Source: Patescibacteria group bacterium
GTDB taxonomy: Bacteria > Patescibacteriota > Patescibacteriia > Patescibacteriales > JAQTRU01
DNA: 64,000 nt
Direction of reading: 5' to 3'
NCBI GenBank assembly: GCA_028716725.1
Contig: JAQUPG010000007.1
Span: forward strand, 10,205 to 74,204
Of the stretch, positions 4,200 to 62,929 are shown one piece after another. The translations under genes were made by a program, and so were the position numbers. Below the pieces are notes generated by a model that did no database searches, was not told where the DNA came from, and worked only from the letters and a program-made list of their open reading frames with translations. Every line of letters starts with the position of its first letter. Position 1 is the stretch's first letter.

Positions 4200-4327
4200 A
4201 ATCCCGCACCTTTTAGGCGATTAAATATTTTGAATTTTGAAATATTTAGTTGTTATAATTAATTATTTTGGCAGCTAGTTATTTAGGTATTTAACGTGCA
4301 AGCGTTTCGCCTAAAAGGTGCGGGATT
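4200..4327. repeat. MITE-like element, copy 1: 21-bp perfect terminal inverted repeats around an 86-nt AT-rich core
   Basis: aatcccgcaccttttaggcga (4200-4220) is the exact reverse complement of tcgcctaaaaggtgcgggatt (4307-4327). The right arm abuts or overlaps the stop codon of the HlyD-like gene. A related copy lies at 38855-38956. Confidence 0.8.
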
Positions 4328-7085: not shown

Positions 7086-7856
7086 CTACCTGTTAATAAT
7101 TTTTTCTAAATATTTTTTCGCTTCTAATTGCTCTCTTAAAGGATTTTCCAACTCAATTGCGCAAATCGGCGGAAAATATTTTACATATTTTTTAACATAA
7201 TCCAACTCGGATAAATCATGCAACCAATGATTATTGTAATATTTCCTTTTCTCGCCGTTTTCAATTTCAAAAAAGGGTTTTGTTCGCATGGCAGATATGT
7301 GGCCGAAGCCAACTTTATATTTTTTTAAGACAGTGGGGAATTTTTTATAACTTTCCAGTTTCTGCATCTGGCTATAATCATGCCAATGGCTTACGTCCAG
7401 ACAAAAACCGGCAAAAATGTCCAAAAGATGAAGAGATTCATTTGAAAAATTAATATGATTTTCTAAATAAATTTTTTTTAGATACCCCTTACTTCTGGCT
7501 AAAAAATCTCTATTTACCTTGTTAAAATGAGTATTAAAAAATTTCGTCTTAAATCTCTTTGTTAAGTAAGCAAATTCCCATTTTTTAAAATCATGCCTTA
7601 CATGGACAACCGGAATTTCTTTTAAACCAGTTTTCTCCAATAGCTTATAGAGCTCTTCCCTTTCCTTAATTTCTAAGCAAGTGGGGAAAAGCGCGATTTC
7701 TTTTAGCCCTAATTTATCAATTTCTTTAACCTTACCTCGCCAATCTGATTTATAAGTAGTGGTCAATCCTAAAAGTATTTTTGGTTTCACCCCGTTAGAA
7801 ATTTTTTTTCTTTCTTTCTCCATAATATTTTTGCCCTTGAATATCTCTTCCCCCAT
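7086..7856 (-). CDS. Hypothetical protein (start could be the internal MEKERKK at 7823)
   Basis: Long ORF in the operon orientation. I recognise no diagnostic motif confidently. The N-terminal KKISNGVKPK is encoded by one arm of an inverted repeat. Confidence 0.6.
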   Translation of the reverse strand: MGEEIFKGKNIMEKERKKISNGVKPKILLGLTTTYKSDWRGKVKEIDKLGLKEIALFPTCLEIKEREELYKLLEKTGLKEIPVVHVRHDFKKWEFAYLTKRFKTKFFNTHFNKVNRDFLARSKGYLKKIYLENHINFSNESLHLLDIFAGFCLDVSHWHDYSQMQKLESYKKFPTVLKKYKVGFGHISAMRTKPFFEIENGEKRKYYNNHWLHDLSELDYVKKYVKYFPPICAIELENPLREQLEAKKYLEKIINR

Positions 7857-7967: not shown

Positions 7968-8978
7968 CTATTTTTTCACTTCCTTATAATTTTCCACAAA
8001 ACCCTTTCCCTTAAGCGGCCGCCACCATCCTTCGTTTTGTTTATACCACTCTACGACGCCGTCAAGGCCTTTCTCAAAATCAATTTCCGGCTCCCAGCCC
8101 AATTCATTTTTTATTTTGGCAATATCAAGCAGATACCGGCGGTCATGCCCGGGCCTGTCTTCTATATATTTCTTCATGGAATCATCCTTCCCTAATCTTT
8201 TTAAGACTGCCGCGGCGATTTCTTCAACGCTTTTTTCTAAGCCAGTACCAATATTATAGGCTTCGCCGATTTTGCCTTTCTTAATTATCATCTCAATCGC
8301 CCGGCAATGGTCATCAGTATGAATCCACTCCCTTTTGTTTAAACTGCTTTTAAATAACGGAATCGGCTCATTATCTATTAAATTAGAAATGAATCTGGGA
8401 ATTACTTTTTCCGGAAATTGGTACGGCCCATAGTTATTAGCGCAATGGCTTATGGTTATCGGCAGGCCAAAAGTATGGAAATAGCACATTACCTCATGGT
8501 TAGCTCCGGCTTTAGAAGCATTATAGGGGGTCTTGGGGGCGTACGGGTCGCTTTCTTTAAAAGCGCGGTTTTCATCCAAAGCCAAGTCTCCAAAAACCTC
8601 GCAAGTCGAAATGTGGTGGAATCTTATCAATCCGGCTTCCTTGGCTGCTTCCAAGAGCATCTGCGTGCCCAAAACATTGGTTTTAACGAAAATATCCGGT
8701 TCCACCATAGCCCGGCCGTTATGTGACTCGGCGGCAAAATTTACAATCACATCAACTTTTTCGGTTTTGAGTAAATTGATATTGTTTTTTAAATCTCCTA
8801 TATCGCCTTTGACAAATTTATAATTAGAATTATTTTCAATGTCCTTCAAGTTTTCCAAATTTCCGGCGTACGTCAAAATATCCAAATTGACAATTTTATC
8901 ATCCGGATATTTTTTAAACCAATAATGGATAAAATTACTTCCTATGAATCCGGCTCCGCCGGTTACTAATAGTTTCAT
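7968..8978 (-). CDS. rfbB: dTDP-glucose 4,6-dehydratase
   Basis: VTGGAGFIGSNF Rossmann motif, catalytic YNASKAG, extended-SDR length (336 aa), and a typical RmlB C-terminus ...RPGHDRRY. Confidence 0.9.
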   Translation of the reverse strand: MKLLVTGGAGFIGSNFIHYWFKKYPDDKIVNLDILTYAGNLENLKDIENNSNYKFVKGDIGDLKNNINLLKTEKVDVIVNFAAESHNGRAMVEPDIFVKTNVLGTQMLLEAAKEAGLIRFHHISTCEVFGDLALDENRAFKESDPYAPKTPYNASKAGANHEVMCYFHTFGLPITISHCANNYGPYQFPEKVIPRFISNLIDNEPIPLFKSSLNKREWIHTDDHCRAIEMIIKKGKIGEAYNIGTGLEKSVEEIAAAVLKRLGKDDSMKKYIEDRPGHDRRYLLDIAKIKNELGWEPEIDFEKGLDGVVEWYKQNEGWWRPLKGKGFVENYKEVKK

Positions 8979-9517
8979 ATTTTATTTTTTAGATAATTAG
9001 CCTTGAAATGACTAACAGCCATTTTAATGTCTTTTACTTGTTTTTTAATAACATTACCAGGTAATGAATCTATATTAAAATATTTACCTAAGGGGCAACT
9101 TCCTTTAGCAATAGCCCAATGCATTAGGGTCATCTCTTTACCTCGACCAAGATTACGAAAAACAGGTTTAACAAAAATTGGTCCAATTTCTATTTTAACA
9201 TTCTTCAATTCATCAGTTAGAATTCTTTTAATCGCGTCTTTAAAATTACCCTCTCTGTCTGTTTCTCTAACTACTGTGCCAGGAGCATGAAACATGTCCG
9301 GCCAATTGGAATCGTCCTTCTTCCTTTTTATTAAAAGTACCTGAAGAGAATTATTTTTCTCCAGGCGGATGGGAACTATCTCAATGGTCGAAAGCACACA
9401 CAATCTAGAAACCTCTAAAAATATAGGCAATGGCAAAATGCCCGGTTTTAACTGTGCCATTTTTTTTCTAATAATCTCTATATCGTCTTTATTGAGAACC
9501 CCTTTTATTTTCTTCAT
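8975..9517 (-). CDS. Hypothetical protein, possibly Nudix-fold with a degenerate Nudix box
   Basis: PGTVVRETDREGNFKDAIKRILTDELK only loosely resembles GX5EX7REUXEEXGU. A 4-nt overlap with rfbB suggests co-translation. Confidence 0.5.
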   Translation of the reverse strand: MKKIKGVLNKDDIEIIRKKMAQLKPGILPLPIFLEVSRLCVLSTIEIVPIRLEKNNSLQVLLIKRKKDDSNWPDMFHAPGTVVRETDREGNFKDAIKRILTDELKNVKIEIGPIFVKPVFRNLGRGKEMTLMHWAIAKGSCPLGKYFNIDSLPGNVIKKQVKDIKMAVSHFKANYLKNKI

Positions 9518-34668: not shown

Positions 34669-35001
34669 TTAGAACATTTTCCCACCCTTTGGCACTTTCT
34701 TTGTCGGTACTAGTAATATTACATCTCCGTTTTCATCCGGCAATCCAAGAGTCAGGACTTCAGATGCGAACGGGCCAATCTGTTTGGGCGGAAAATTTAC
34801 TACTCCTATCACCTGTTTTCCTAGGAGCTCCTCTTTAGTATAGTGCTTCGTAATTTGAACCGAAGATTTTTTAATGCCAATTTTCGGACCAAAATCTATA
34901 GTCAGTTTGTAAGCCGGTTTTTTGGCTTCAGGAAAATCTTCCACTTTTATAATTTCTCCGACTCGTATATCAATTTTTTCAAAATCCTGATAATTAATCA
35001 T
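34669..35001 (-). CDS. tRNA-binding domain protein (CsaA/Trbp111-like)
   Basis: FEKIDIRVGEIIKVEDFPEAKKPAYKLTIDFG...SEVLTLG. Start at MINYQDF, giving an 8-nt overlap with the upstream gene. Confidence 0.8.
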   Translation of the reverse strand: MINYQDFEKIDIRVGEIIKVEDFPEAKKPAYKLTIDFGPKIGIKKSSVQITKHYTKEELLGKQVIGVVNFPPKQIGPFASEVLTLGLPDENGDVILLVPTKKVPKGGKMF

Positions 35002-35518
35002 AATCCTTAAAATATTTTTCAAATGTATCATCCGGCGTTTGCCCGGTTGTATCAATAAAATTATCCCTGCCCACTTCATTTCTGATGGCTTCAAATTCCG
35101 CCCGAACCGCTTCTATGCGTTCAATGCCCGTTGTCCAGCATTCGCGCTCCTTATCTCTTTTTATCATCTCTTCTTTAGTCGGAAATAAAACTTTAATTTC
35201 CAGACTATTTCCGAATTCTTTTTTAAACCTTTCGAAAAATTCTAAATAATGGCCAAAGATTATATAATCAAGAACAATATTATTCTCGCCCTGATTAAAG
35301 GCTTTTTTTACTTCGGCAAAAATTTTATCATGCGCTTGTTTTAATTTTTTAAAATTTTCCGGCAGCCAATGGCGCCCCTCGGGAAAAAATTCGCTGTCCA
35401 ATTTGTCGCCGTCAACTTTGATAAAACCGCGCCTCTTAACTAATAAATCAGCCATTGTGGTTTTGCCCGAACCCCCTGGCCCGGTTAGGATCAGTACTTT
35501 TTTTTTATCGTTTGCCAT
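34994..35518 (-). CDS. P-loop kinase-like ATPase (AAA_33 / chloramphenicol-phosphotransferase-like)
   Basis: Walker A LTGPGGSGKTT. Small 174-aa kinase-fold size. Confidence 0.6.
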   Translation of the reverse strand: MANDKKKVLILTGPGGSGKTTMADLLVKRRGFIKVDGDKLDSEFFPEGRHWLPENFKKLKQAHDKIFAEVKKAFNQGENNIVLDYIIFGHYLEFFERFKKEFGNSLEIKVLFPTKEEMIKRDKERECWTTGIERIEAVRAEFEAIRNEVGRDNFIDTTGQTPDDTFEKYFKDYD

Positions 35519-38854: not shown

Positions 38855-38956
38855 ATCCCGCACCTTTTTATTTTAAGCGATGTTTAACGCTTTGCCTAAA
38901 ATAAAATTTTATTAAATTAAAAACCTCATATAAGAGGGCTAAAAAAGGTGCGGGAT
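38855..38956. repeat. MITE-like element, copy 2 (15-bp terminal inverted repeats ATCCCGCACCTTTTT)
   Basis: atcccgcaccttttt (38855-38869) versus aaaaaggtgcgggat (38942-38956). The AT-rich core shares gcctaaaa / aagcg words with copy 1. It lies between the secA leader and the ParB-like gene. Confidence 0.75.
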
Positions 38957-39043
38957 AAACAAAATTATTATATAACCTTTTTCTAAAAAAAGCAATAATA
39001 AGAAAAACCCGCCGACATCAAGCCAACGGGTCTTTTTTTATCA

Positions 39044-40726
39044 CTATTCCTCGGTTCCTCCTCCCTCACCTGGCCTATCAGCTTCCCAAAGCTTTCTAAC
39101 ACTTTCCTGAACCACGTCTTTGATACTGCCCTCGTTGTAGACAGTTTCCCTCAGTTTCTTGAATTTTGCCATAATTCTGTCCAAACACTCAAGGACCTTT
39201 GCTTTGTCTTTTTTGTCCCGGCTATAAAACAGCATGATGATTTTTAGAGGACCCATCTCCAGGATTAGTTTAGCCCTATCCTCTGTAATACCCAGAGAAT
39301 TTTTGAAAACAACATAATCGTCAGATAGCTGTCTTTTTCTTCCCGGCTTCCTTACTTCTGGCCCGGCCTGATTTCTGATAAACTGCTTGGCTCGGTCAAC
39401 TGACATCCCCTCATTTTGAATCCTTTTTAATAACTGCCTCTGCTTTTGGTGATCGGGAATATACCTGCCTAATTCAACGGCCAAACCGGAAGGCACGCCT
39501 TTGTCTTTATCCCGCGAATGAAGGGATATTTGCTCTTGAATATCAGAAGCGACTTTAAGAAGGTCCAAATAGTTCAACATTGTTTGGACGGACATACATA
39601 ATGCTTCAGCAACCCTTTCGTTTATAACTCCTTTCTTTAGCGGTTTACCATTTTCTGCGACCTCTTCTAATTTGGCGATAAGCTTTGCTGCGGTTTTAGC
39701 ATACTCCATCGGAGTATGCCCTTCTCTGCCAAGGTTGGCAATTGCTGAAGCCTCAAAAATATCAATGTCCGGATTAGCAAGTATAATCGCAAAAATATAC
39801 TTAAAATGTTTTGCCTCAGCAACGCGCCATCTCCTTTCTCCGTCAACCAGCATATAACCCTTGTCTGTTTTTACGACAATAACGGGTTGTTGCTGATTTT
39901 TCCTTTTAAAATTCTTCGCCAGTTGATCAAGCTTTTCTGGATCAAAGAATTCTCTTGGTTGATCGGGGTTGGGGTAAACTTCACTAACCAAAAGCTTCTT
40001 TAAAACCGCTCCTTCCAAAATCGAAGGGGGAGTTTTCGTTGCTTCTTCCTCGCCCATCCCAGAATCGTCCTCGGAAGCAGAAACTGAAGTTTCAACCCTG
40101 TTAGTTTCTTCAATCCTCACACCTTCTGGTTCAGGTTCGGTTTCGGTTTTTTCCCCTTTCCCAGCCTTTTCGGCCCCCGAAACATCTTGGGCTGCCGCGG
40201 CTACGGCGGCATCTATTTCCGGGTTAGTTACTTCATCCCCGACATCTCCCCCATCCTCGGAAACAGGATCAAGAATTTCAGCCTCAATCTCCCCGATTCC
40301 TCCGAGCCCCATATCTGCCAGAGCTGCCGCGGCTGCATTCTCATCCTCTTCCACAACTTTTGGGGGATCTTCTACGTTTTTAGGTTTTGTTTTTTTACCC
40401 CCTTGCCTGACTCTGGTAATAAAAGCGGAATTTTTGGATTTTTTACGAGTTCTCCCGGCTCCTCTTGGTTTTTCACCCCCATCTTCTTCCTTGGGGCCGG
40501 AACCATTACCGCCGCTATATTTCAACCATATCGGGGTACAGGTACAGCCGGCTTTGTCGCAAACCAATATTCTGTTTGAGGGATCAGAACGAAGTTTTAA
40601 ACATTCATTTTTCAAAACTTCTCTGTTTCTAACAGGACAAAAATGCGGCAAAGTATCCAGCGTGAAATGTTGTAAGTGCCCGGCGGTGCGGGTATAAGAA
40701 TCCATATCAAGGCTGTCCATTTCCAA
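39044..40726 (-). CDS. ParB/Srx-domain protein with HTH, Cys-rich N-terminus and a long acidic low-complexity linker
   Basis: ParB box ...YMLVDGERRWRVAEA... (GxxRxxA arginine patch), the HTH-like ERVAEALCMSVQTMLNYLDLL, and an N-terminal HFCPV...CLK...VCDKAGCTC. G+C is visibly higher than the flanks. No parA nearby. Confidence 0.7.
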   Translation of the reverse strand: MEMDSLDMDSYTRTAGHLQHFTLDTLPHFCPVRNREVLKNECLKLRSDPSNRILVCDKAGCTCTPIWLKYSGGNGSGPKEEDGGEKPRGAGRTRKKSKNSAFITRVRQGGKKTKPKNVEDPPKVVEEDENAAAAALADMGLGGIGEIEAEILDPVSEDGGDVGDEVTNPEIDAAVAAAAQDVSGAEKAGKGEKTETEPEPEGVRIEETNRVETSVSASEDDSGMGEEEATKTPPSILEGAVLKKLLVSEVYPNPDQPREFFDPEKLDQLAKNFKRKNQQQPVIVVKTDKGYMLVDGERRWRVAEAKHFKYIFAIILANPDIDIFEASAIANLGREGHTPMEYAKTAAKLIAKLEEVAENGKPLKKGVINERVAEALCMSVQTMLNYLDLLKVASDIQEQISLHSRDKDKGVPSGLAVELGRYIPDHQKQRQLLKRIQNEGMSVDRAKQFIRNQAGPEVRKPGRKRQLSDDYVVFKNSLGITEDRAKLILEMGPLKIIMLFYSRDKKDKAKVLECLDRIMAKFKKLRETVYNEGSIKDVVQESVRKLWEADRPGEGGGTEE

Positions 40727-40826
40727 CCTCCCTGCTAATTTTTATGTTTTTTGTTGTTTTGTCAAAGTTCAAAAAATATCTAAAAAAGAAAGGGAGAATT
40801 TCCTCCCTTTCTTTTTATCTTAACTC

Positions 40827-43234: not shown

Positions 43235-43311
43235 AATAATTATAATTTGTCCCGCCACTTTATTATATTTATTGTGGGCGGGATCCCGCCGAAGCGGTGA
43301 TAAATTAGTAA

Positions 43312-48689: not shown

Positions 48690-49397
48690 TTATTTCTTCG
48701 ACTTCTGCATGATACCGGCAAGAAGTGCCTGAGCCACTGCCTCGGGAAGGTTGAATTCCCTCTGGACTCCCGCGATAACTTCGGGGATATTGGCAACGAC
48801 CCGGGGCAAGGATTCCTCTTTCCCCGCCTGCATAATCTGGGCGTGAAAATGGTCGCGCGTGCTAGCTCCGCCGAAATTGACAACTGCACGGAAATCGGTT
48901 CCGAATATTTCTGCCGCCACTCTTATGGCTTGGGCAGTGAGAACGGCACGGGCTTCCACTTCTTTAGCGCCGACATGGCAGTTAATGACTGTAAAGATAT
49001 AATGTTTCTTTACACATTTCTTACCGCTCGGGATGACGATCCAGATATATTCTTTTCCTCCCTTACCCCCTATCATAACCGATCCGGAGGAAATAATTTC
49101 AACTTCCTGCCCAATCTGATCAAGGGTTTTATCTTTGAATTGTTCGCAACTCGGGCAACCGGTAACAAAACCTTCTGCCATCACTCTGAATCCTCCCTTA
49201 TCCAAAAATTTGCCACTAGTATTTATGTATACATCAGCTTTCTTTTCCGCTATTTTCCCAACCTTTATGCCAGCACTCCCGCAAGGCATAAATTTTTTTA
49301 TACCCAACTTTTCAGCCAATCTTATTTCCGTTTCAAGTAAATGAAATCGGCTAACAAGCATCTTTGCGTTTCCCAAATTAATTTTCAACGAAGCCAT
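48690..49397 (-). CDS. Hypothetical protein with an HxHxQ motif (possible GalT-branch HIT-like nucleotidyltransferase/phosphorylase)
   Basis: STRDHFHAQIMQ matches the HxHxQ-hydrophobic-hydrophobic pattern of the GalT branch of the HIT superfamily, and there is an upstream CPSC pair. G+C is clearly above its neighbours. 13-nt overlap with the sulfotransferase gene. Confidence 0.35.
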   Translation of the reverse strand: MASLKINLGNAKMLVSRFHLLETEIRLAEKLGIKKFMPCGSAGIKVGKIAEKKADVYINTSGKFLDKGGFRVMAEGFVTGCPSCEQFKDKTLDQIGQEVEIISSGSVMIGGKGGKEYIWIVIPSGKKCVKKHYIFTVINCHVGAKEVEARAVLTAQAIRVAAEIFGTDFRAVVNFGGASTRDHFHAQIMQAGKEESLPRVVANIPEVIAGVQREFNLPEAVAQALLAGIMQKSKK

Positions 49398-50347
49398 TTA
49401 TTAATTTTATAATATATTCTCTCGAAACAAAATTTGAGTAATCGTTTAAACAATCGTTTTAAGCGTCTTTTTAATGTTAATGGTTTATTATCAAATAACT
49501 GATAACCTTTATAACTTAAATATGCTTTTTTTAAACTAAGTGGAGAAAATTTCTCTAAAGCTTTTAGTTTATCAATGTCTCCCCTAATTTCGCTATCTTT
49601 AAAATCTTCATTAACCTGCTGATAATACTTATCAAATATTGGTAACAAAGAATCCCAAAAAGGATGAGAGTTAAGATTTGCTTCTATGTCTTTATTTTTA
49701 GGCTTGATTGTAGAAGAAGGATGACCTTGCCACCAATAAAGAGAAGACTTGGGATTATCTTCATTAATATTGCTGACTTTTTCCCACCATTTATCCAAAG
49801 ATGACATTTCCATATTTAAAAAACGTCCTAATTCCTCTATTGTTTTATCATTCTGATAAATCATGTCCACCATGCGGATATGTAGAATATTCGGCAATAA
49901 AAAACTCTCTAAAAAATAAATACAATAATCTATCGCCGTATATAAAATATCATCCTTAATGAAGAAAAAATCGTTGATGGAATCTTTACACAACCAGGTA
50001 CGAATATCTCTTATAGTAAAAATTACTCCGTAATCCCGTAATTTATTTAACAACCCCTTATTTATATCCGGAAACTTATCCCCTATAATCTTAAAATCAT
50101 ATCCTTTCTCCCTGAAAAATTTCAAAGCCCGAGAATATGATCTCCCAATATCATCCTCGTCTCTAAACAAATATCGCGCTTCAGGATATCTCCTTAAAAA
50201 TTTTCCCGCATATTTACTAATTTTGCTGCGATTAAGACATGTTTCATAAAATATAAAAATATTTGGGTGGCGGTTTAACATTCCCACTAAGGTGGAAGTT
50301 CCGGTTTTTGGCGCACCAACAATAAATAAAATATTTTTTTTCTCCAT
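49385..50347 (-). CDS. Sulfotransferase-family protein
   Basis: N-terminal PAPS 5'-phosphosulfate-binding-like loop FIVGAPKTGTSTLVGML. Located directly downstream of cysD and cysNC. Very low G+C. Confidence 0.7.
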   Translation of the reverse strand: MEKKNILFIVGAPKTGTSTLVGMLNRHPNIFIFYETCLNRSKISKYAGKFLRRYPEARYLFRDEDDIGRSYSRALKFFREKGYDFKIIGDKFPDINKGLLNKLRDYGVIFTIRDIRTWLCKDSINDFFFIKDDILYTAIDYCIYFLESFLLPNILHIRMVDMIYQNDKTIEELGRFLNMEMSSLDKWWEKVSNINEDNPKSSLYWWQGHPSSTIKPKNKDIEANLNSHPFWDSLLPIFDKYYQQVNEDFKDSEIRGDIDKLKALEKFSPLSLKKAYLSYKGYQLFDNKPLTLKRRLKRLFKRLLKFCFERIYYKINKWLR

Positions 50348-54372: not shown

Positions 54373-55563
54373 TTAATTGGCTAACGCCTCATTAAATAAT
54401 TTAATCAGCTTAGCGGTAGTATTTCGCACATCATACTGCTCTAAATATTCTTTATTTATTTTTATTTCTCCGGAAATTAACCCTTCGAGATATTTAGCTA
54501 GTTCATAAATTTGATTGTAATTAAATGATGCGCAACCCAAACTTTCTAGAAACTGGGCCGTCGGGCTATTAGTCGGGGTTATCCCCAGGATAGCCCTTCC
54601 GCTTCCCGCATAATCAACGACTTTTGACGGTAAAAACGGGCTGCCAGGCATGTCGGCGTCAATCACGACTAAACAATCAGACAATTTCATATATTTCAAA
54701 CTCTCTTCATAACTGACGGGGGGGACAATTTCTATATTATCTTTTAAGCCATAAAGATCCGCCATCTTAGCTATACTTTCAGTACTATAACCGGCGTAAT
54801 CATTGGCCGCGCCAATCAATTTAATTTTAAATTTACGAGCAAAGTCAGGCCCCTTATTTATTATCTTCTGTAAGGCTTTAAACAGCAATTCCGGATTTCT
54901 TTGCTTATAAAAAGCGCCGATATAGCTTATGATAAATTTATCAGAATCTGTTTTGCTAACTTCCGGATAATCTTTAAGATTAAAACAGTGAGAAATTACT
55001 TCCGCTTTTTTAGCCCAAAACTCCGGATATTTTTCCATAACCAGATTCTTTGCTTCCTTAGTAACAAAAACTACTTTATCGCTATTTTCAATAACATATT
55101 TTTCTAGTTTTAAAACATTTTTTCTCTCAAGCCATGAATATTTTTTGTATGGATTATCAAACCAGGGATCGCTAAAATAGGCGACAAATTTAGCGCCTAA
55201 TTTTTCTTTCATCATCGCCCCCAATATATTGCTAGCCTGCGGATTTGAAAAAGAAAAAATAATATCTATTTTATAATTTTTCACTATATCTTCGGCAATT
55301 TTACACAACTTTTTATAATACCTCGTGGCGAAAAAATTACGAATTAAAAAATACTTATTAAAATATCTGTTTATTTTAAATTTAGGAATTTTATAAACCG
55401 GCGCATTTATTCCCCAGTCTCCGCACACGTCATAAGTAATAATAACCGGCTCAAGGCCCTGCTTAATCCATTCCGGAATCATTTTCCCAATTAAAATAGA
55501 CTGCGGACGAACTGCGGGGGGCGTCCAAAAACTTAGGCATAAAACTTTAATTTTTTCTTTCAT
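54373..55563 (-). CDS. Glycosyltransferase, GT4/GT-B-like
   Basis: GT-B size and layout, with a C-terminal ...FLPSKVVDYAGSGRAILG... resembling the EX7E region. ATG at 55563 preferred over the TTG at 55581. Confidence 0.65.
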   Translation of the reverse strand: MKEKIKVLCLSFWTPPAVRPQSILIGKMIPEWIKQGLEPVIITYDVCGDWGINAPVYKIPKFKINRYFNKYFLIRNFFATRYYKKLCKIAEDIVKNYKIDIIFSFSNPQASNILGAMMKEKLGAKFVAYFSDPWFDNPYKKYSWLERKNVLKLEKYVIENSDKVVFVTKEAKNLVMEKYPEFWAKKAEVISHCFNLKDYPEVSKTDSDKFIISYIGAFYKQRNPELLFKALQKIINKGPDFARKFKIKLIGAANDYAGYSTESIAKMADLYGLKDNIEIVPPVSYEESLKYMKLSDCLVVIDADMPGSPFLPSKVVDYAGSGRAILGITPTNSPTAQFLESLGCASFNYNQIYELAKYLEGLISGEIKINKEYLEQYDVRNTTAKLIKLFNEALAN

Positions 55564-55564
55564 A

Positions 55565-56611
55565 TTAATTAAATACTTCAAAATTTTTCATCGCTAAAGG
55601 AAAAAATTTGTTTGTCGTACCCAGGGAATATAAACTTATATTTTTTAGTATTAACTCCGGTTCAAAATCGGATTGCAAAAAACGGTATTGCAACGGTAAA
55701 TTTATATAATCACAAAAGTCCTCAAATTTCTTTTGGTAAGATATACTTATAAAAGGTACATCTAATAAAAAGGGTACTACTATTCCATGCAATTTTGTCG
55801 AGATGAAAAAATCACACCTTTTTATCTCTTCCGTAAAAGACTTCGAATCATTTACGTATGGTATAATTTCTAAGTTATCTAGAGAAATTTCTTTATAAAG
55901 CTTTTGGCAAAAATTTAATTCTATTTTTTGTTCATCATTCGAGAAACAAAATAATTTTATTTTTTCATATTTTTTCCCTAACTCTCTAAGTAACTCCACA
56001 TAATTGTTAAATACTTTTGTGTAATTACTTTTGTACGGTAATCTAACAGCAATGCCAATGTTATTGATTGTCCTAACTTTATTTCGCGGACAAATATTTT
56101 TAAATTTTAAATAGCTAGCCGCTAAATCAAATGACAAAATCGGTTTATAAGGAAGATTTAATTTTTGAGCAAACTTAAAGCTGTCCTCATCACGAAACGA
56201 ACAGGTATCCAGTATTTGCAATAATTTAACGCAAGCCCTTTCGTCTTCCTGAGAACCAAAAGGCCCAATGGACAACCCAACACCAACTACCCTTCCGTTT
56301 TTGTTATTCTTTTTTAAGTATTCAGCTCCCCTTCGTTTCCAATTTGAACTATTGGCGGAATGTAAAACTGAACCGCCGCCGATTATAAGTAAATCCGTTT
56401 TTCTTAATATCCGATTTTCCCACCATTTTCTCAAAAAACAAATTTTAATTTTAAACGGGTATATCCATTTATCGCCATGGGGTCTCTCCTCCGCCCAAAC
56501 CCAATAATTATACTCTTTATATTTTTGCCATAAAAAAATCTTTATGGCTTCAGCCATAACATCATCACCGTAATTTTTACTGCCTCGCCAGGCAATGTGG
56601 ACAATATTCAT
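55565..56611 (-). CDS. Polysaccharide pyruvyl transferase family protein
   Basis: N-terminal HIAWRGSKNYGDDVMAEAI (the GxxNxGD pattern of CsaB/WcaK-type enzymes), ...LIIGGGSVL... and ...FISTKLHG... Confidence 0.6.
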   Translation of the reverse strand: MNIVHIAWRGSKNYGDDVMAEAIKIFLWQKYKEYNYWVWAEERPHGDKWIYPFKIKICFLRKWWENRILRKTDLLIIGGGSVLHSANSSNWKRRGAEYLKKNNKNGRVVGVGLSIGPFGSQEDERACVKLLQILDTCSFRDEDSFKFAQKLNLPYKPILSFDLAASYLKFKNICPRNKVRTINNIGIAVRLPYKSNYTKVFNNYVELLRELGKKYEKIKLFCFSNDEQKIELNFCQKLYKEISLDNLEIIPYVNDSKSFTEEIKRCDFFISTKLHGIVVPFLLDVPFISISYQKKFEDFCDYINLPLQYRFLQSDFEPELILKNISLYSLGTTNKFFPLAMKNFEVFN

Positions 56612-56685
56612 AAAGCCCTTCACAATTAACTATTTTTTAACATGAAGTTCAATTCCGGTTCTAAAACTTTCGCTATCAATTTCTT

Positions 56686-57434
56686 TTAATCCCAATCTTT
56701 TAACAATTCATAAAAATCCTCTACTGTATAACCATGTACTGGATTTATTATTTTTGAATGAATAGTCACTAATATATCCAGAGATTTACATCTTTTAATA
56801 AACTCCCTCATTCCTTCTAGGCACTGCTTTTCAAATCCTTCCGCGTCTATTTTCACAACTACCCTCTTGAAGTCTTCGTGATTTAAAGAGTTAATTAAAG
56901 AATCAATTGTCATGCAAGGCAACATTATAAAGTTATTTTTAGTAGTAAATCTACCCTTGAGCCATTTTTCTGTATCTTAACCGGAACCAACTCATTGACA
57001 TCACCAGCTGCAGCTTGATACAAAAAGACATTATTCGTTTTATTTAATTCCATATTTTTATAAATGATACAAGCGCTAAGGGGGTTTGGTTCAAAAATAT
57101 GTACTTTAATATTCTTATTCATTTTTGAGGCCAACAAGCCAAATATTCCGTTATATCCCCCGATATCCAAAAAAAGCGTTGCGTCCTTTGCTAAATCAAT
57201 GCTTTTCTTCTCCTATTTACTTTTCGAAAAATTATCTTTGGCTCTATAATGAGCATAAAAATGTTGATACATTATATCTCCGTCAAATACCAAGGAGTTT
57301 AATAACACTTCCTCGCCCTTATATTTGATTCTAAAAATTTTTCTTCTCCTTAAAAAGGTTGCTACATAAGGCATAAAAACCTTAAGTATGTATTTTTTAA
57401 TGAAATTTTTATAAAATATTACGCTTAGTTTCAT
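56686..57434 (-). pseudogene. FkbM-family methyltransferase disrupted by an in-frame TAG and a frameshift
   Basis: Three ORF fragments (57434-57213, 57170-56925, 56925-56686). The TAG at 57215-57213 is in frame with ...EKKSIDLAKDATLFLDIGGYNG. FkbM motifs FLDIGGYNG, HIFEPNP and VVKIDAEGFE are split across frames near 56925-56975. Confidence 0.6.
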
Positions 57435-57448
57435 TTGATTTTAATTAA

Positions 57449-58954
57449 TTAATTTTTTTCTATTTCTTTTTTATATATCTGCCATAACGGATCCAATGCT
57501 TCATCTCCCTGTTCCCAAGCTTTAAAATAATTAAAATAGAATCCAGTGTCATAAACAGCTGCCACAAAATTCTCTAATCGCCTCTCATACTCATCAGTCT
57601 TTAAATTAATCTTTAAAATCTCTTTAATTTTAGCTGACAAGGTTGTCATATCTGTGTGATGAAAAACGTTAGGTAACTTCAGGGTTGTACCTAAATTGCC
57701 AAGTTGGATTGCCGGTTTATTTAAAAAAGCGGCTTCCGCTATAGTAGTGCTGTTTGGACTAATTATTAAGTCGGCCCTTTTTAAAACGTCCTCGCTTGAA
57801 ATTCTATAATCAATCAGTTTAATATTAACCGTTCTGGCAATTTTCTCAATGTAGGAGGGCGGCCGCAAACCGACCATAGCCGGATGCTCTTTTACCGCCA
57901 GAACATAATCATCGGGCATAGACATAGCCGCTAGCCTGGCTATCTCTATTTGATTACTAAAATACGGAGCGGTTACATCCATACTGGCTTCCGGCTGAAA
58001 TTGCAAAGGAAAATAAACAAATTTTTTTATCTTTTCAAAGGGATAATAATTAAAATTATCCATAAATTTTTTATATCTCTTGTTGCAATAATGATCTCTC
58101 AAAATAATTTTTGGCGGCCGGTAATCTACTGTTATGCCGGTACTTTCTAAAACATTTTTTGATGGTCCTTTAATATACCAAAGCAAAATATGATAAAAAG
58201 GAGACAACTCATGCCTAATTATTTGTTTTATTGATTGTTTGATGTTTGTCTCTTTGAGATAATCCGGTTTTTTAAAAGTTTCTCTAAACTCTTTTATATA
58301 TCTTTTAGCTTTATCACGGTTAACCGTTTCTTCTGAATTATTATTAAGCGCATCAACCCGATCATAAAAAGCGCCTTCATTGCCCTGATAACTATCTGAA
58401 AAAATATGATAACCTTTAATTTTAGAATCCATAAATTCTGTCATTCTTACTCCTCTTTTTTTAGCAAAAAGATTAAACATTATGTGGGGCAAAGAAACAA
58501 AATTCGGAGTAATAATTATTTCTGGATTAAATTTATCAAATATTTCATTAATATACTTATAAACTGCCATAACAAAATCTATAATTTCTTCATCAGGCAC
58601 ATTCTGCTTAAAAGAATAATAATATTTATCTTTATAACATTTAACGTGATTTCTTAAAGTACTTACTATCGGCCAAATAGAATCTATATCTAAAGCCTTA
58701 CATATTTCTTTAAGAGAATAATTATCGCCTCGCAGATAGTCTTTCGGTCGGCTCATTATTTCGTCGTTATTAATAACCAAGTCATACTTTACCTCTTTCT
58801 GATTCAAAATGAAATCATGTGTAGTCCTTTTTAGTGTTAACGCCGCCAGCCTGCATCCTTCGGCTTGTAATTTCTTGGCTAAAAAATGTCCGATATTTAT
58901 TCCCCAAGCACGCTGTTGGAAAATTAAGATTCTTCTATTCTTTAAATTATCCAT
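57449..58954 (-). CDS. Capsule-polysaccharide-biosynthesis-like protein (KpsC/KpsS Capsule_synth-like or related GT-B)
   Basis: 501 aa. ...DLIISPNSTTIAEAAFLNKPAIQLG... resembles the C-terminal Rossmann half of Capsule_synth proteins. The family assignment is tentative. Confidence 0.4.
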   Translation of the reverse strand: MDNLKNRRILIFQQRAWGINIGHFLAKKLQAEGCRLAALTLKRTTHDFILNQKEVKYDLVINNDEIMSRPKDYLRGDNYSLKEICKALDIDSIWPIVSTLRNHVKCYKDKYYYSFKQNVPDEEIIDFVMAVYKYINEIFDKFNPEIIITPNFVSLPHIMFNLFAKKRGVRMTEFMDSKIKGYHIFSDSYQGNEGAFYDRVDALNNNSEETVNRDKAKRYIKEFRETFKKPDYLKETNIKQSIKQIIRHELSPFYHILLWYIKGPSKNVLESTGITVDYRPPKIILRDHYCNKRYKKFMDNFNYYPFEKIKKFVYFPLQFQPEASMDVTAPYFSNQIEIARLAAMSMPDDYVLAVKEHPAMVGLRPPSYIEKIARTVNIKLIDYRISSEDVLKRADLIISPNSTTIAEAAFLNKPAIQLGNLGTTLKLPNVFHHTDMTTLSAKIKEILKINLKTDEYERRLENFVAAVYDTGFYFNYFKAWEQGDEALDPLWQIYKKEIEKN

Positions 58955-60925: not shown

Positions 60926-61684
60926 TTATAATTTATCAGCCTCCAGCGACTTAGCGTAACCTTCATCTCTTGCTTTTCCCTCCTGGACTTTATGCAAGGC
61001 AGGATTTTGGTCTAAAAAATTTAAAATATCACCCATGCTAAAAATTTTTCCTTTCCGGTAAAGACCAGCAAATATTTTTTTAATAAACTCAAAATCTGTG
61101 TTGTCGTCAACAGTCCAGCGTAGATGCGAATAATCCGTCTTTGATTCAAAATGCCCCACCCTGAATAAATGCGGATTCTTCCAAATATAGGGGCAGACAT
61201 GTTCCCTTTCGGATTTAAGTTTAGCTTCTTTCCACGCCCGCTCCAATGTCTTAAAGGGGAAAATCCAAAGGTCTAAACCGTCCGGAAAAGTAGGGGGATT
61301 CACATTACTTACATAGTCATATTTATTTTTATTTTTTAGATAAAAATCTATTAAATCATCCACTATTTTGGGATCATGCAAAGGGCAATCAGCCGTTACC
61401 CTGGCAATTATATCAGCCTTGTATTTTTTGGCAGCTTGGTAAATTCTATCCAAGACATCATCCTCGTCTCCGATAAAGTAAGGACAATTTATCTTTTTAG
61501 CTAAAGCGACGGTAGCGGCATCGGCCGGATTCTTAGTGGTAGCGATAATAATTTTGTCTATCTTCTGGCAATGCCGCAATCTTTCTACCAAGAGCTCTAA
61601 TATTGGTTTTCCCTTTATTTTTTTTAAGATCTTACCGGGCAATCTGGTTGAGTTCATTCTGGCTTGGATTATGGCTGTTATCAT
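60926..61684 (-). CDS. SpsF-like cytidylyltransferase (CMP-sugar synthetase family)
   Basis: ITAIIQARMNSTRLPGKILK N-terminus. ATGA overlap with the upstream gene. Confidence 0.75.
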   Translation of the reverse strand: MITAIIQARMNSTRLPGKILKKIKGKPILELLVERLRHCQKIDKIIIATTKNPADAATVALAKKINCPYFIGDEDDVLDRIYQAAKKYKADIIARVTADCPLHDPKIVDDLIDFYLKNKNKYDYVSNVNPPTFPDGLDLWIFPFKTLERAWKEAKLKSEREHVCPYIWKNPHLFRVGHFESKTDYSHLRWTVDDNTDFEFIKKIFAGLYRKGKIFSMGDILNFLDQNPALHKVQEGKARDEGYAKSLEADKL

Positions 61685-62331
61685 ATAATTTCCGGGGCAA
61701 GACCATAACAATTGCGGAGGGAAAGGTGTCTATGGACATTAAACCCATTTTTATTTATTTTTTTAGGATCAAGGTATCGCCCGGTATATATCCTGTCTCC
61801 GTTCCTGTCTTTATCGGAGCACCAAATAAAATCATACTTCCAGAGTATTTCTCCTTGAGTATGAAAATAATAAGCAAAAAACACAAAAGCGGTTAGGATA
61901 GCCGCCGGAAAATTTTCTCTTCCTTCTAATCGTTTCCCGATATTTTCTGGGTTTTTCCCGCGGCTGTTTTTATTAACAGTCTTTTTCACTAAATACCACT
62001 TAAAATTTAAAGCTTCGCTTTTGGCGAATTTTTCTTTTAAATACCAATCCTGGTTATAAAAACATGGTTCTTTTTTTTCCGGATTACAACCGAACCTTGA
62101 CCGCATTTTATTAATAGTCAATCTCTGACCGTCTTTATCTTTTGGTATCCCTAAAATCAAAATATAATCTTTATGAATCCTTTTTAAAAAATTCGGATCA
62201 AAATAAATATTGGGAATTTTAAACTTCATTTTATAAGGATCCGCGATTTTAAATCTTAAACTTATTCTTTTAAGTTCATTCGGTCCGATAAAATTTTTAC
62301 CCATTATTTTTTTCGCTTGCGCTATATTCAT
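61681..62331 (-). CDS. Hypothetical protein
   Basis: A 216-aa ORF translationally coupled to the cytidylyltransferase. No motif recognised. Confidence 0.5.
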   Translation of the reverse strand: MNIAQAKKIMGKNFIGPNELKRISLRFKIADPYKMKFKIPNIYFDPNFLKRIHKDYILILGIPKDKDGQRLTINKMRSRFGCNPEKKEPCFYNQDWYLKEKFAKSEALNFKWYLVKKTVNKNSRGKNPENIGKRLEGRENFPAAILTAFVFFAYYFHTQGEILWKYDFIWCSDKDRNGDRIYTGRYLDPKKINKNGFNVHRHLSLRNCYGLAPEII

Positions 62332-62335
62332 AAAA

Positions 62336-62929
62336 TTATTTTTGCTTTTCTTTCCATTTCTGATAATTAATGGCTTCTTCTGTGGTAGCTAAATATCCTT
62401 CAGCCGTATATTTATCTATCTTTTCAAATTCTTCTTCCAGTAGCTTCATTCTGGTTTTCCCTAAAGTAGTTTTTTCAAACCATAATAATTCTCTGGCCGG
62501 AGCGTTAAATATTTGGATTTTCAATTTAGCCTTCTCCATAGTTTTTAAAAATGTCAAATAAGCCCTGGGCTGGTGGAAATTAGAAGCAACCAGGATTATC
62601 TTTTTCCATTTTTTCTCTTTAGCTATCTTCATAACTTCCACGCCTTGCTCATAGGAATTTTGGGAATTTTCTTCTAAAATTATTTTCCGTCGCGAAATAC
62701 TGGCTGGTATTTTTTTTGCCATTATTTTAGCCGGAATGCTAAAGGGAGGAGAATTATATCCTCCGGAAATCAATAGCCTTTCTGCCAGCCCCTGCTTAAA
62801 AATTTTAACCGCTTTATCAAGGCGATGATAAACGTCTCCTTCTAAACAAACCACCGCTTCTGATTTCTTGATTTTGTCATTACTGACAATGGCCATTATT
62901 TTAACTTTTTCCAGTTCTTTGTTTTCCAT
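62336..62929 (-). CDS. DUF218 (YdcF/ElyC/SanA-like) domain protein
   Basis: AVVCLEGDVYHRLDKAVKIFKQGLAERLLISGG and ...ILVASNFHQPRA... patterns. Confidence 0.65.
   Translation of the reverse strand: MENKELEKVKIMAIVSNDKIKKSEAVVCLEGDVYHRLDKAVKIFKQGLAERLLISGGYNSPPFSIPAKIMAKKIPASISRRKIILEENSQNSYEQGVEVMKIAKEKKWKKIILVASNFHQPRAYLTFLKTMEKAKLKIQIFNAPARELLWFEKTTLGKTRMKLLEEEFEKIDKYTAEGYLATTEEAINYQKWKEKQK

Follow-up and report, generated by a model that had tools for sequence, protein, structure and literature searches.

We analysed a 64,000-nucleotide stretch from the genome of a Patescibacteria group bacterium (assembly GCA_028716725.1, contig JAQUPG010000007.1, positions 10,205 to 74,204 of the forward strand; hereafter the window), and within it a gene on the minus strand (39044..40720, stop included) encoding a ParB-like protein of 558 amino acids (aa). 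Rather than being the partition protein of the cell, this product probably represents a new kind of regulator bound to the chromosome. We give somewhat better than even chances to its being an orphan, ParA-independent, nucleotide-gated DNA clamp of the ParB type, one that would hydrolyse its nucleotide slowly or not at all and serve as a nucleoid-bound regulator or silencer. A previous sequence-only reading of this DNA had described a solitary ParB/Srx-domain protein with a Cys-rich head and an acidic disordered linker, located on a G+C-rich single-gene island. As a description, this was partly borne out, since the open reading frame (ORF), the domains, the head and the linker were all recovered while the G+C island was not. 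Its interpretation fared similarly: a non-canonical ParB is supported, whereas the island, a recent insertion and the Noc, sulfiredoxin (Srx) and nuclease assignments are not.

Only two domains were detected in the protein by Pfam, namely ParB_N (PF02195; residues 242-332, E 4.7e-16) and HTH_ParB (residues 366-452), the latter with E 1e-4 and 22.9 bits, barely over the 22.6 cutoff. The ParB box proposed from the sequence (LVDGERRWRVAEA) is present and aligns without gaps with the GERRWR box of Myxococcus ParB. The helix-turn-helix (HTH) and the helical tail proposed along with it were found as well, the tail being a helical C-terminal region of ~100 aa. On the minus strand, the core comprises a PPSILEG motif with ParB_N (residues 231-340, 39701..40030; Pfam, alignment and structure), a ParB-type HTH domain (residues 341-459, 39344..39700; Pfam, AlphaFold2 and Foldseek), and a segment made up of a GRKRxxSDDY motif and a helical C-domain whose tail is acidic (residues 460-558, 39047..39343), the last ~60 residues of which are kept between the allelic types described below. 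In an AlphaFold2 model based on a 148-sequence family alignment, the predicted local distance difference test score (pLDDT) exceeded 90 for residues 230-550. The closest structures of this core in Foldseek were the cytidine triphosphate (CTP) clamps ParB, Noc and KorB. For the C-terminal domain, Foldseek and hidden Markov model (HMM) searches detected no significant relative in PDB or BFVD.

Of the motifs that form the nucleotide pocket, Q254-P-R256 and G294-E-R-R-W-R299 are intact. In box III (A328-N-L-G-R332), however, Glu is replaced by Ala, as seen in the ungapped alignment of IANLGRE with VENLQR of Myxococcus ParB. The corresponding mutant of Caulobacter ParB, E135A, binds CTP without hydrolysing it and closes prematurely (PMC8367383), and B. 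subtilis E111Q is likewise hydrolysis-dead (PMC8494293). An exhaustive HMMER search over 1.84 billion representatives returned only 6 proteins at E <1e-30, together with a large set of ~100-bit matches which share a box III xNFGREGHTP, a post-HTH GRKRxPSDDYR and then the helical C-domain. We will call proteins with a box III xN(F/L)xREGHT devoid of Glu, a post-HTH RKRxPxDDY and a helical C-domain the Glu-less family; the protein studied here belongs to it through AIANLGREGHTP and GRKRQLSDDYV. A residue census was made over the top 148 representatives, i.e. 108 family members and 40 canonical ParBs. The phosphate-contacting residues Q58, R60, G101, R103, R104 and N136 are 96-100% conserved in both groups, and R139 is retained in all canonical proteins (40) and in 90 of the 108 family members. 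In contrast, the box III Glu is present in every canonical ParB (40/40) and in none of the family (0/108), where Ala (51), Ser (32), Cys (9) and, less often, other residues take its place. Family members are known only from metagenomes and carry generic source names. Among annotated phages and plasmids, only generic ParBs of 25-33% identity were found, and a scan of a genome collection with a generic QPR pattern was swamped by canonical ParBs and recovered one true relative. For the whole Glu-less family, the annotation as partition protein is probably misleading.

Short members of the family (~300 aa) are phage genes, located between portal and Mu-F head genes in three loci (L006, L007 and L115). 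Eleven IMG/VR contigs carry the family box III, and other phage contexts include DnaB helicase, LexA-type regulators and integrase. Because the contexts vary, no single phage role can be claimed, and a uniform role of the short members in a packaging module was rejected. As for the earlier suggestion of a plasmid- or phage-derived silencer, many family members do occur in phages, but neither a recent insertion nor a compositional island was found in the window (see below). In one IMG/VR locus (L131, 5680-8001), a 773-aa protein with a weak ParB_N match is encoded directly upstream of a family-type short ParB-like gene, and this locus would thus hold two ParB-fold genes in tandem. A gene for a sigma-70-type factor adjoins the ParB-like gene in L008 (2347-4304, with stop-start overlap) and lies just downstream of it, on the opposite strand, in L004 (3396-5939; L004/L005). 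We treat this linkage as coincidence, as it is absent from the window and from L001, L003 and L009.

The best sequence and structure matches of residues 236-450 were canonical ParB/Spo0J proteins (Myxococcus 7BNK, Caulobacter 6T1F and B. subtilis 6SDK), with which QPR, GERRWR and the box III Asn and Arg are identical. The protein might be the functional chromosomal ParB of its lineage, a centromere binder and possibly the only one, with a true role in partition or SMC loading; we regard this as rather improbable. Its ParA would be encoded elsewhere, or it would do without one by loading SMC or organising the origin region, and its N-terminal extension would be a lineage-specific substitute for the ParA-interaction peptide. 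Besides the intact GERRxR and QPR, this is favoured by a pass of the NCBIfam model TIGR00180 parB_part (81 vs 58 bits), by the annotation in NCBI as a partition protein and by vertical inheritance among housekeeping genes. What sets the protein apart from canonical ParBs is its 235-aa N-terminal extension, the box III Ala as a natural equivalent of the hydrolysis-dead E135A/E111Q, and the lack of the elements that accompany partition. No match to the ParA-activating motif (L/F/I)G(K/R)G(L/F/I) was found in it by regular expression: PPSILEG (ISPILEG in relatives) stands where canonical ParBs have LGRGL, and G[KR]GL occurs in 33 of the 40 canonical proteins of the census vs 1 of the 108 family members. 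Neither a deviant Walker A motif of ParA (KGGxGK[ST]) nor a second GERR box was found in the window. KGGxGK[ST] was also absent from the L001, L003 and L004 loci, and none of the related loci examined showed a ParA family among its called or Pfam-scanned genes; the earlier statement that no parA is nearby holds for the window. The C-terminal dimerisation domain PF23552 went undetected by Pfam even at E up to 1, and no match to parS (TGTTNCACGTGAAACA) within 3 mismatches exists in the window. Together with the missing box III Glu and the presence of family members in phage genomes, these results argue against the partition role and agree with the earlier opinion that this is not the chromosomal partition ParB.

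The protein and its family fit a variant of the known class of orphan ParBs (Kaljevic et al., PNAS 2025, PMC12704722). Common to both are a ParB-CTPase fold with HTH, a location away from parA and outside a parAB operon (within the 64 kb), the lack of a ParA-binding motif, a divergent box III, relatives on mobile elements and phages, and extra regions absent from Pfam. The survey in that paper differs in being Pfam-based, with no Patescibacteria in its main text and zinc in one reference only, and it contains neither a Cys-rich head, nor an acidic tether, nor the xNFGREGHTP / RKRxPxDDY family, nor hypervariability of a chromosomal slot.

The sequence-only reading had further proposed a Noc-, KorB- or sulfiredoxin-like regulator. 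Noc is indeed an orphan ParB paralogue whose N-terminal extension has a function unrelated to ParA, a trait it shares with the extended protein studied here, and its open-state structure (7NFU) is one of the best superpositions, with a template-modelling (TM) score of 0.65-0.67 and a root-mean-square deviation of 4.3-4.5 A. Noc, however, retains the Glu of ENLQR, has a short membrane-targeting helix and no Cys head, and membership was rejected at 91.3 bits against the TIGR04285 cutoff of 315; palindromes resembling Noc-binding sites were not significantly enriched in the window and stayed at chance level. Sulfiredoxin was rejected as well, since GCHR is missing, Srx structures match only ~80 residues at E ~1e-3, and an HTH and a C-terminal domain are present. 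The best analogy is the clamp or silencer mechanism of KorB, which belongs with VirB (Shigella) and BisD (ICEclc) among ParB-like CTP-dependent clamps that regulate transcription. With KorB of RK2 the protein shares the core fold (Foldseek 8qa8/8qa9, E ~1e-9), and with all three a presumed role independent of ParA, in which it would load as a clamp at a specific site and then affect gene expression. It is nevertheless not a KorB: PF08535 was undetected in it, no gene for a small KorA-like repressor is adjacent, and the N-terminal head and C-terminal domain are different. Its gene is chromosomal and linked to housekeeping genes, not borne on a plasmid or an integrative and conjugative element, and the regulatory function is here a presumed one.

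A ParB-like nuclease, or a protein that guides a DNA-modifying enzyme to DNA, as some ParB-like proteins of phages do, was also considered and has, in our view, only a slim chance. PHROGs does label some relatives as 'ParB-like partition nuclease', with weak scores, and a ParB-dependent phage thymidine dioxygenase has been reported (PMC13229309). But no HNH or other nuclease or methyltransferase domain is fused to the protein and no such gene is adjacent; nothing points to the nuclease-type ParB envisaged earlier; the best structural matches are clamps with HTH, and the set of phosphate-binding residues is complete, as is typical of nucleoside triphosphate switches.

The Cys-rich head occupies residues 18-68 (40517..40669, minus strand), where C28, C40, C54 and C61 precede (S/T)P-x-W, and represents the short form of a ~80-aa Cys7-His module. 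The Cys/His cluster noticed earlier is thus real and conserved, its four Cys being invariant or nearly invariant in 17 homologous heads. The long form reads PCP...C...C...C-x-SPWR-x-C-x2-C-x2-QG...GLC-x-FH-x2-HG, while the short form, predominant in the clade of the query, stops at C-x-PPW and retains the first four Cys. The two forms can be aligned in register; C2, C3 and C4 are then invariant, and C1 almost is. AlphaFold2 modelled the query head as a beta-hairpin and a helix (pLDDT 67-80; same alignment of 148 sequences), and the long form, from 17 sequences, reached a mean pLDDT of 90.1 and a predicted TM score of 0.78. Pfam recognised nothing in any N-terminal extension of the relatives; structure searches with the head (Foldseek) gave no significant match in PDB or BFVD, and profile (HMM) searches none in PDB. 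Word-indexed homology searches with the head alone or with the profile of 17 heads also returned nothing, the index being unable to reach such short, variable modules. According to these models and searches, the head is a previously undescribed domain, uncatalogued in Pfam and predicted to fold confidently. It is probably a Zn (metal) binding module, a property deduced solely from the invariant Cys.

With the degenerate DNA pattern CxSPWRxCxxCxxQG, 26 metagenome loci were recovered, 13 of them containing genuine heads. Seven full-length ORFs and one 3'-truncated ORF among these were fused to ParB cores, and one head protein of 163 aa had no recognised domain beyond the head. In locus L110 (5927-6970, minus strand), a 309-aa protein consists of the long Cys head, a coiled coil and the C-terminal DNA-binding domain of H-NS (PF00816, 42.6 bits, E 5e-11). 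Genes for a cell-wall hydrolase and ComEC lie to one side of this gene, MBL and HD hydrolase genes to the other. The order of N-terminal module, linker and DNA-binding domain is common to L110 and the protein studied here, although the latter lacks an H-NS domain and is linked to the H-NS family via the head only. Judged from these fusions, the head is a portable module carried on two unrelated nucleoid-binding chassis, ParB-like and H-NS-like. Its attachment also to an H-NS domain suggests that it supplies a function common to nucleoid-associated proteins, not DNA recognition itself, and argues for partner binding, oligomerisation or regulation rather than sequence-specific DNA recognition. 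Other N-terminal modules were observed on the same core, for example a C-x-HG-x7-C-x2-C knuckle at the extreme N-terminus (P0016, P0022, P0023, P0080 and P0091), an XRE-type HTH in P0008 from the query's own clade, and a 627-aa N-terminal region of P0092 that looks helicase-like by eye.

The head is followed by a basic patch (residues 85-115, 40376..40468, minus strand) with a net charge of up to +8 per 20-residue window, and by an acidic disordered linker (residues 116-230, 40031..40375, minus strand), delimited by composition and pLDDT. The computed block 121-235 contains 32 D+E vs 7 K+R (net -25), and pLDDT is below 50 over most of residues 62-216, with a sole short helix at 127-137. The acidic and disordered nature of the linker announced by the sequence-only reading was hence confirmed, though not its extent: the acidic span is ~115 aa long after a basic patch of ~30 aa, and not a uniform 180 aa. 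Overall, the linker is poorly conserved (26-40% identity; ratio of non-synonymous to synonymous rates, dN/dS, 0.45-0.55), and its length within the clade ranges from almost nothing (P0006) to ~180 aa. It holds conserved islands, namely EEDExAAxxALADM (the predicted helix), GGIGEIEAE, EIDAAV and ETSVSxxEDDSGxGEE. The helix motif EEDENAAAAALADM (residues 124-137, 40310..40351, minus strand) recurs in P0002, P0008 and P0009 and, more loosely, in P0007. The islands resemble short linear motifs borne on an acidic, flexible tether.

Taken as an orphan clamp, the protein would bind a specific DNA site through its HTH, bind a nucleotide (probably CTP, with some uncertainty) and close its N-gate into a clamp around DNA. 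As the catalytic Glu is lost, the clamp would presumably stay closed for long or be recycled slowly. Closed, it would act as a nucleoid-bound platform, silencer or regulator, as do KorB, VirB and BisD, and would not form a ParA-driven partition complex. The Cys4 head on its basic patch and acidic tether would be an adaptor, recruiting a partner or being recruited by it; alternatively or additionally, head and tether could form an autoinhibitory arm that mimics DNA.

Several points weigh against this explanation. In Caulobacter ParB, the amino group of cytosine is read by S74 and G79, and S74A and G79S lose CTP binding (PMC8367383, PMC8494293). Both cytosine-reading positions are Asn in the query (N270 and N275), a change confined to its immediate branch. 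This makes its ligand uncertain: the ligand may differ from CTP, or binding may be weak, all the more as the ParB-CTPase fold has a nucleotide specificity that is unpredictable from sequence, with ATP and GTP binders in existence (PMC12704722). A long-lived clamp is moreover not the only possible outcome of the Glu loss, since Caulobacter E135A entraps DNA poorly in vitro. Dimerisation through the modelled C-terminal domain would be putative, and our searches found no binding site for the protein. Throughout the family, the binding of nucleotide and metal and the closure of the clamp are predictions. Finally, our view is that of a 64-kb window, and the protein could be the sole ParB-type protein of its genome.

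The gene turned out to be hypervariable in a conserved slot, as supported by five genomes. We compared amino-acid identities of the neighbours frr/rseP/hpf/secA (given in this order) and of the ParB-like core. The window and L001 share 92/88/93/91% in the neighbours and 74% in the core; the window and L009, 89/84/93/91% and 41%; the window and L003, 87/84/80/89% and 39%; the window and L004, 71/67/79/77% and 44%; and L003 and L009, 83/79/81/88% and 66%. Thus, L004 has the flanks most distant from the window, yet its core is closer than those of L003 and L009, and the relationships of the gene disagree with those of the flanks. Two deep allelic types occupy the slot: the window and L001 represent type A, to which L004 belongs distantly, whereas L003 and L009 represent type B; the same two groups appeared in a rough neighbour-joining tree without support values. 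At the nucleotide level, an approximate cassette of 39300..40770 (minus strand) shows 25-57% identity to L009 vs 80-92% in the flanks (80-91% in rseP and hpf, 80-92% in secA), with a recovery to 69-80% in the last ~250 nt of the coding sequence (CDS). Divergence between the types is greatest in the HTH (15-28% identity) and smallest in the last ~60 residues (54-66%); inside type A, no region is better conserved than the HTH (84%). For the pair of window and L001, dN of the gene is 0.258 vs 0.03-0.07 in the flanks, i.e. its non-synonymous rate is 4-8 times higher, and dN/dS is 0.27 vs 0.04-0.11 in the flanks, remaining below 1 in every region. In the 5' half of the gene, dS is about twice that of the 3' half and the flanks. 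These substitution rates indicate that the gene is functional and constrained by purifying selection. At the same time, the gene is either replaced by recombination or diverges very fast, and DNA specificity is the property most likely to vary. Such a pattern is unlike housekeeping centromere proteins, and a core of 41% identity where SecA is 91% identical, with an HTH at 15-28%, adds to the case against a partition role.

The hypervariability raises another explanation, in which the gene serves conflict or specificity, either as a domesticated phage-derived clamp that silences or excludes foreign DNA or as a determinant of self-recognition. Diversifying or frequency-dependent selection would act on the HTH, and with it on DNA specificity, as well as on the N-terminal adaptor, and strains would swap the gene through recombination in the conserved flanks. 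We hold this to be possible but unlikely. The two deep types in one slot, the conflict between gene tree and flanks, and the abrupt drop of nucleotide identity between conserved flanks, with the 3' end of the gene conserved, speak for this explanation, as does the HTH being the part that diverges most between types. Furthermore, the clade shuffles its N-terminal modules (short head, long head once or twice, XRE-type HTH), linkers vary from 0 to ~180 aa, phage relatives exist, and the head also occurs in fusion with H-NS, whose domain is the classic DNA-binding module of xenogeneic silencers. On the other hand, dN/dS is below 1 in every region for the one close pair compared. PADLOC defence models had no match, the neighbours are housekeeping and not defence genes, and the comparison covers five genomes only, with a rough tree.

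As for the gene model, the ORF listing gives 39044..40726 on the minus strand (560 aa from TTG), as described earlier. An ATG at 40720 sits two codons inside this start and yields the 558-aa product, which is most likely since AGGGAGG (40727-40733) lies 6 nt upstream of it; a protein identical to these 558 aa is deposited in NCBI as 'MAG: ParB/RepB/Spo0J family partition protein [Patescibacteria group bacterium]'. This Shine-Dalgarno (SD) sequence (40727..40733, minus strand) is kept as AAGGAGG or AAGGGGG in L001 and L003. Upstream of it we found a sigma-70-like promoter, TTGACA-16 nt-AAAAAT (40738..40765, minus strand), for which relatives carry TTGAACTTTGACA...CATAAAAA, and the intrinsic terminator of hpf (40783..40816, minus strand; 15-bp stem, then a T-run), which separates the ParB-like gene from hpf. 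The gene has an intrinsic terminator of its own (39003..39035, minus strand), conserved in relatives. The terminator-promoter junction noted upstream by the sequence-only reading is thus present and accompanied by a downstream terminator. DNA-level conservation in three genomes, the window and two others, extends to the promoter, SD and terminator of the gene as well as to the terminator of hpf and the promoter of secA. The ParB-like gene forms its own transcription unit.

An in-frame ATG at 40055-40057 (codon 222) is preceded by an SD-like sequence, and a headless isoform of 337 aa, beginning just before PPSILEG, is possible. It could be argued from this that the start is mis-called, that the first 235 residues are therefore artefactual and that the real product is a ParB core of ~320 aa, but we consider this hardly credible. 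The head is 65% identical to that of P0002, a relative of 60% overall identity, and thus as conserved as the catalytic domain (66%), with dN/dS of 0.215, which excludes a mis-called start. Moreover, homologous heads keep the four Cys invariant or almost invariant, conserved SD and promoter sequences stand ahead of ATG 40720, Met222 is not conserved in P0002, and the long head form folds at pLDDT 90.

We then return to the supposed island. The gene had been called visibly richer in G+C than its neighbours, which it is not: its GC is 0.449 vs 0.444 in secA and 0.446 in rseP, with a mean of 0.407 (sd 0.046) for the ORFs of the window, and its GC3 of 0.408 is under the window mean of 0.418. The only GC-rich portion is the linker (0.51), where GC resides in codon positions 1 and 2 and therefore reflects amino-acid composition (Gly, Ala, Glu and Asp codons). 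A compositional island was rejected on per-gene GC and GC3. The single-gene island hence fails in terms of composition, but holds in the sense of a hypervariable cassette between highly conserved flanks. The neighbours hpf and secA were confirmed by Pfam, the order of genes being holB, BNR protein, frr, rseP, hpf, the ParB-like gene, secA, AAA kinase and tRNA-binding protein. The order frr-rseP-hpf-ParB-secA is kept in four other genomes of related Patescibacteria, which rules out a recent insertion. The same order surrounds P0002 (567 aa; 60% identity over 98% of length) on a 301-kb contig, and the more distant relatives P0006 (from GCA_028711655.1), P0005 and P0007 (from JAQTSG01) keep frr-rseP-hpf-ParB-secA too.

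The element mentioned earlier downstream of the gene was also found. It is bounded by a perfect 15-nt inverted repeat around ~100 bp (38855-38956), with arms at 38855-38869 and 38942-38956 (ATCCCGCACCTTTTT / AAAAAGGTGCGGGAT), and lies within the leader of secA, with the conserved promoter of secA on one side and a conserved hairpin on the other. L001, the closest relative, lacks this element, and L003 has part of it. At 4201-4326 (arms 4201-4215 / 4312-4326), between ORFs, the same termini enclose an unrelated interior in a second element. These could be insertions resembling miniature inverted-repeat transposable elements, or structured leader RNAs. Another repeat is the perfect 14-bp palindrome GGCGGGATCCCGCC at 43277-43290, with its half-site again at 43250-43256. 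The palindrome also occurs in L001 (7224-7237 and 9393-9406) and L003 (13409-13422); in the window and L001 alike, it stands at the same place between BNR and frr. It lies near the expected -35 position of a TATAAT box and is not followed by a T-run. GCGGGAT is found with 6 of its 10 occurrences in the 13% non-coding DNA, always as inverted pairs. The palindrome may be an operator, but nothing ties it to the ParB-like protein. L004 lacks it, in L003 it falls within secA, and it is specific to neither allelic type.

Neither tRNA nor Rfam elements were found in the window. Its compositional outliers are several ORFs of low GC (0.30-0.35 vs the mean of 0.41), located at 7086-7856, 8975-9517, 49385-50347, 54373-58954 and 61681-62929. 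The strand bias is very strong, the minus strand carrying 48 of the 52 large non-redundant ORFs. Over the profiled 30-50 kb, the cumulative GC skew decreases monotonically, and thus no replication origin or terminus is evident there. The ORF of the tRNA-binding domain, starting with TTG, overlaps the upstream AAA-kinase ORF by ~100 nt (34669-35094; 34994-35518). As the two genes abut in relatives, this TTG was probably called too early.

We can only speculate how the hypervariability and the clamp would combine. One scenario, in our opinion unlikely, is that a hypervariable, ParA-independent ParB-type clamp, by nature impaired in hydrolysis, serves Patescibacteria as a strain-specific silencer of DNA, an exclusion factor or a marker of self DNA, that its DNA-recognition cassette (head, linker, ParB_N and HTH) is exchanged by recombination among close relatives, and that the head is a new adaptor which plugs unrelated nucleoid proteins, ParB-like and H-NS-like, into a common partner.

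Only recently were ParB-type CTP switches recognised as a class of molecular switches, and their roles beyond partition are only now being mapped. A natural family without the hydrolysis Glu, including phage members, offers a ready test of what CTP hydrolysis is for, and the Cys-rich head would add an undescribed domain grafted onto two unrelated nucleoid-binding chassis. The occurrence of deeply different alleles in one chromosomal slot of close relatives hints at a function in specificity or conflict, which would concern the poorly understood, uncultivated and ultra-small Patescibacteria.

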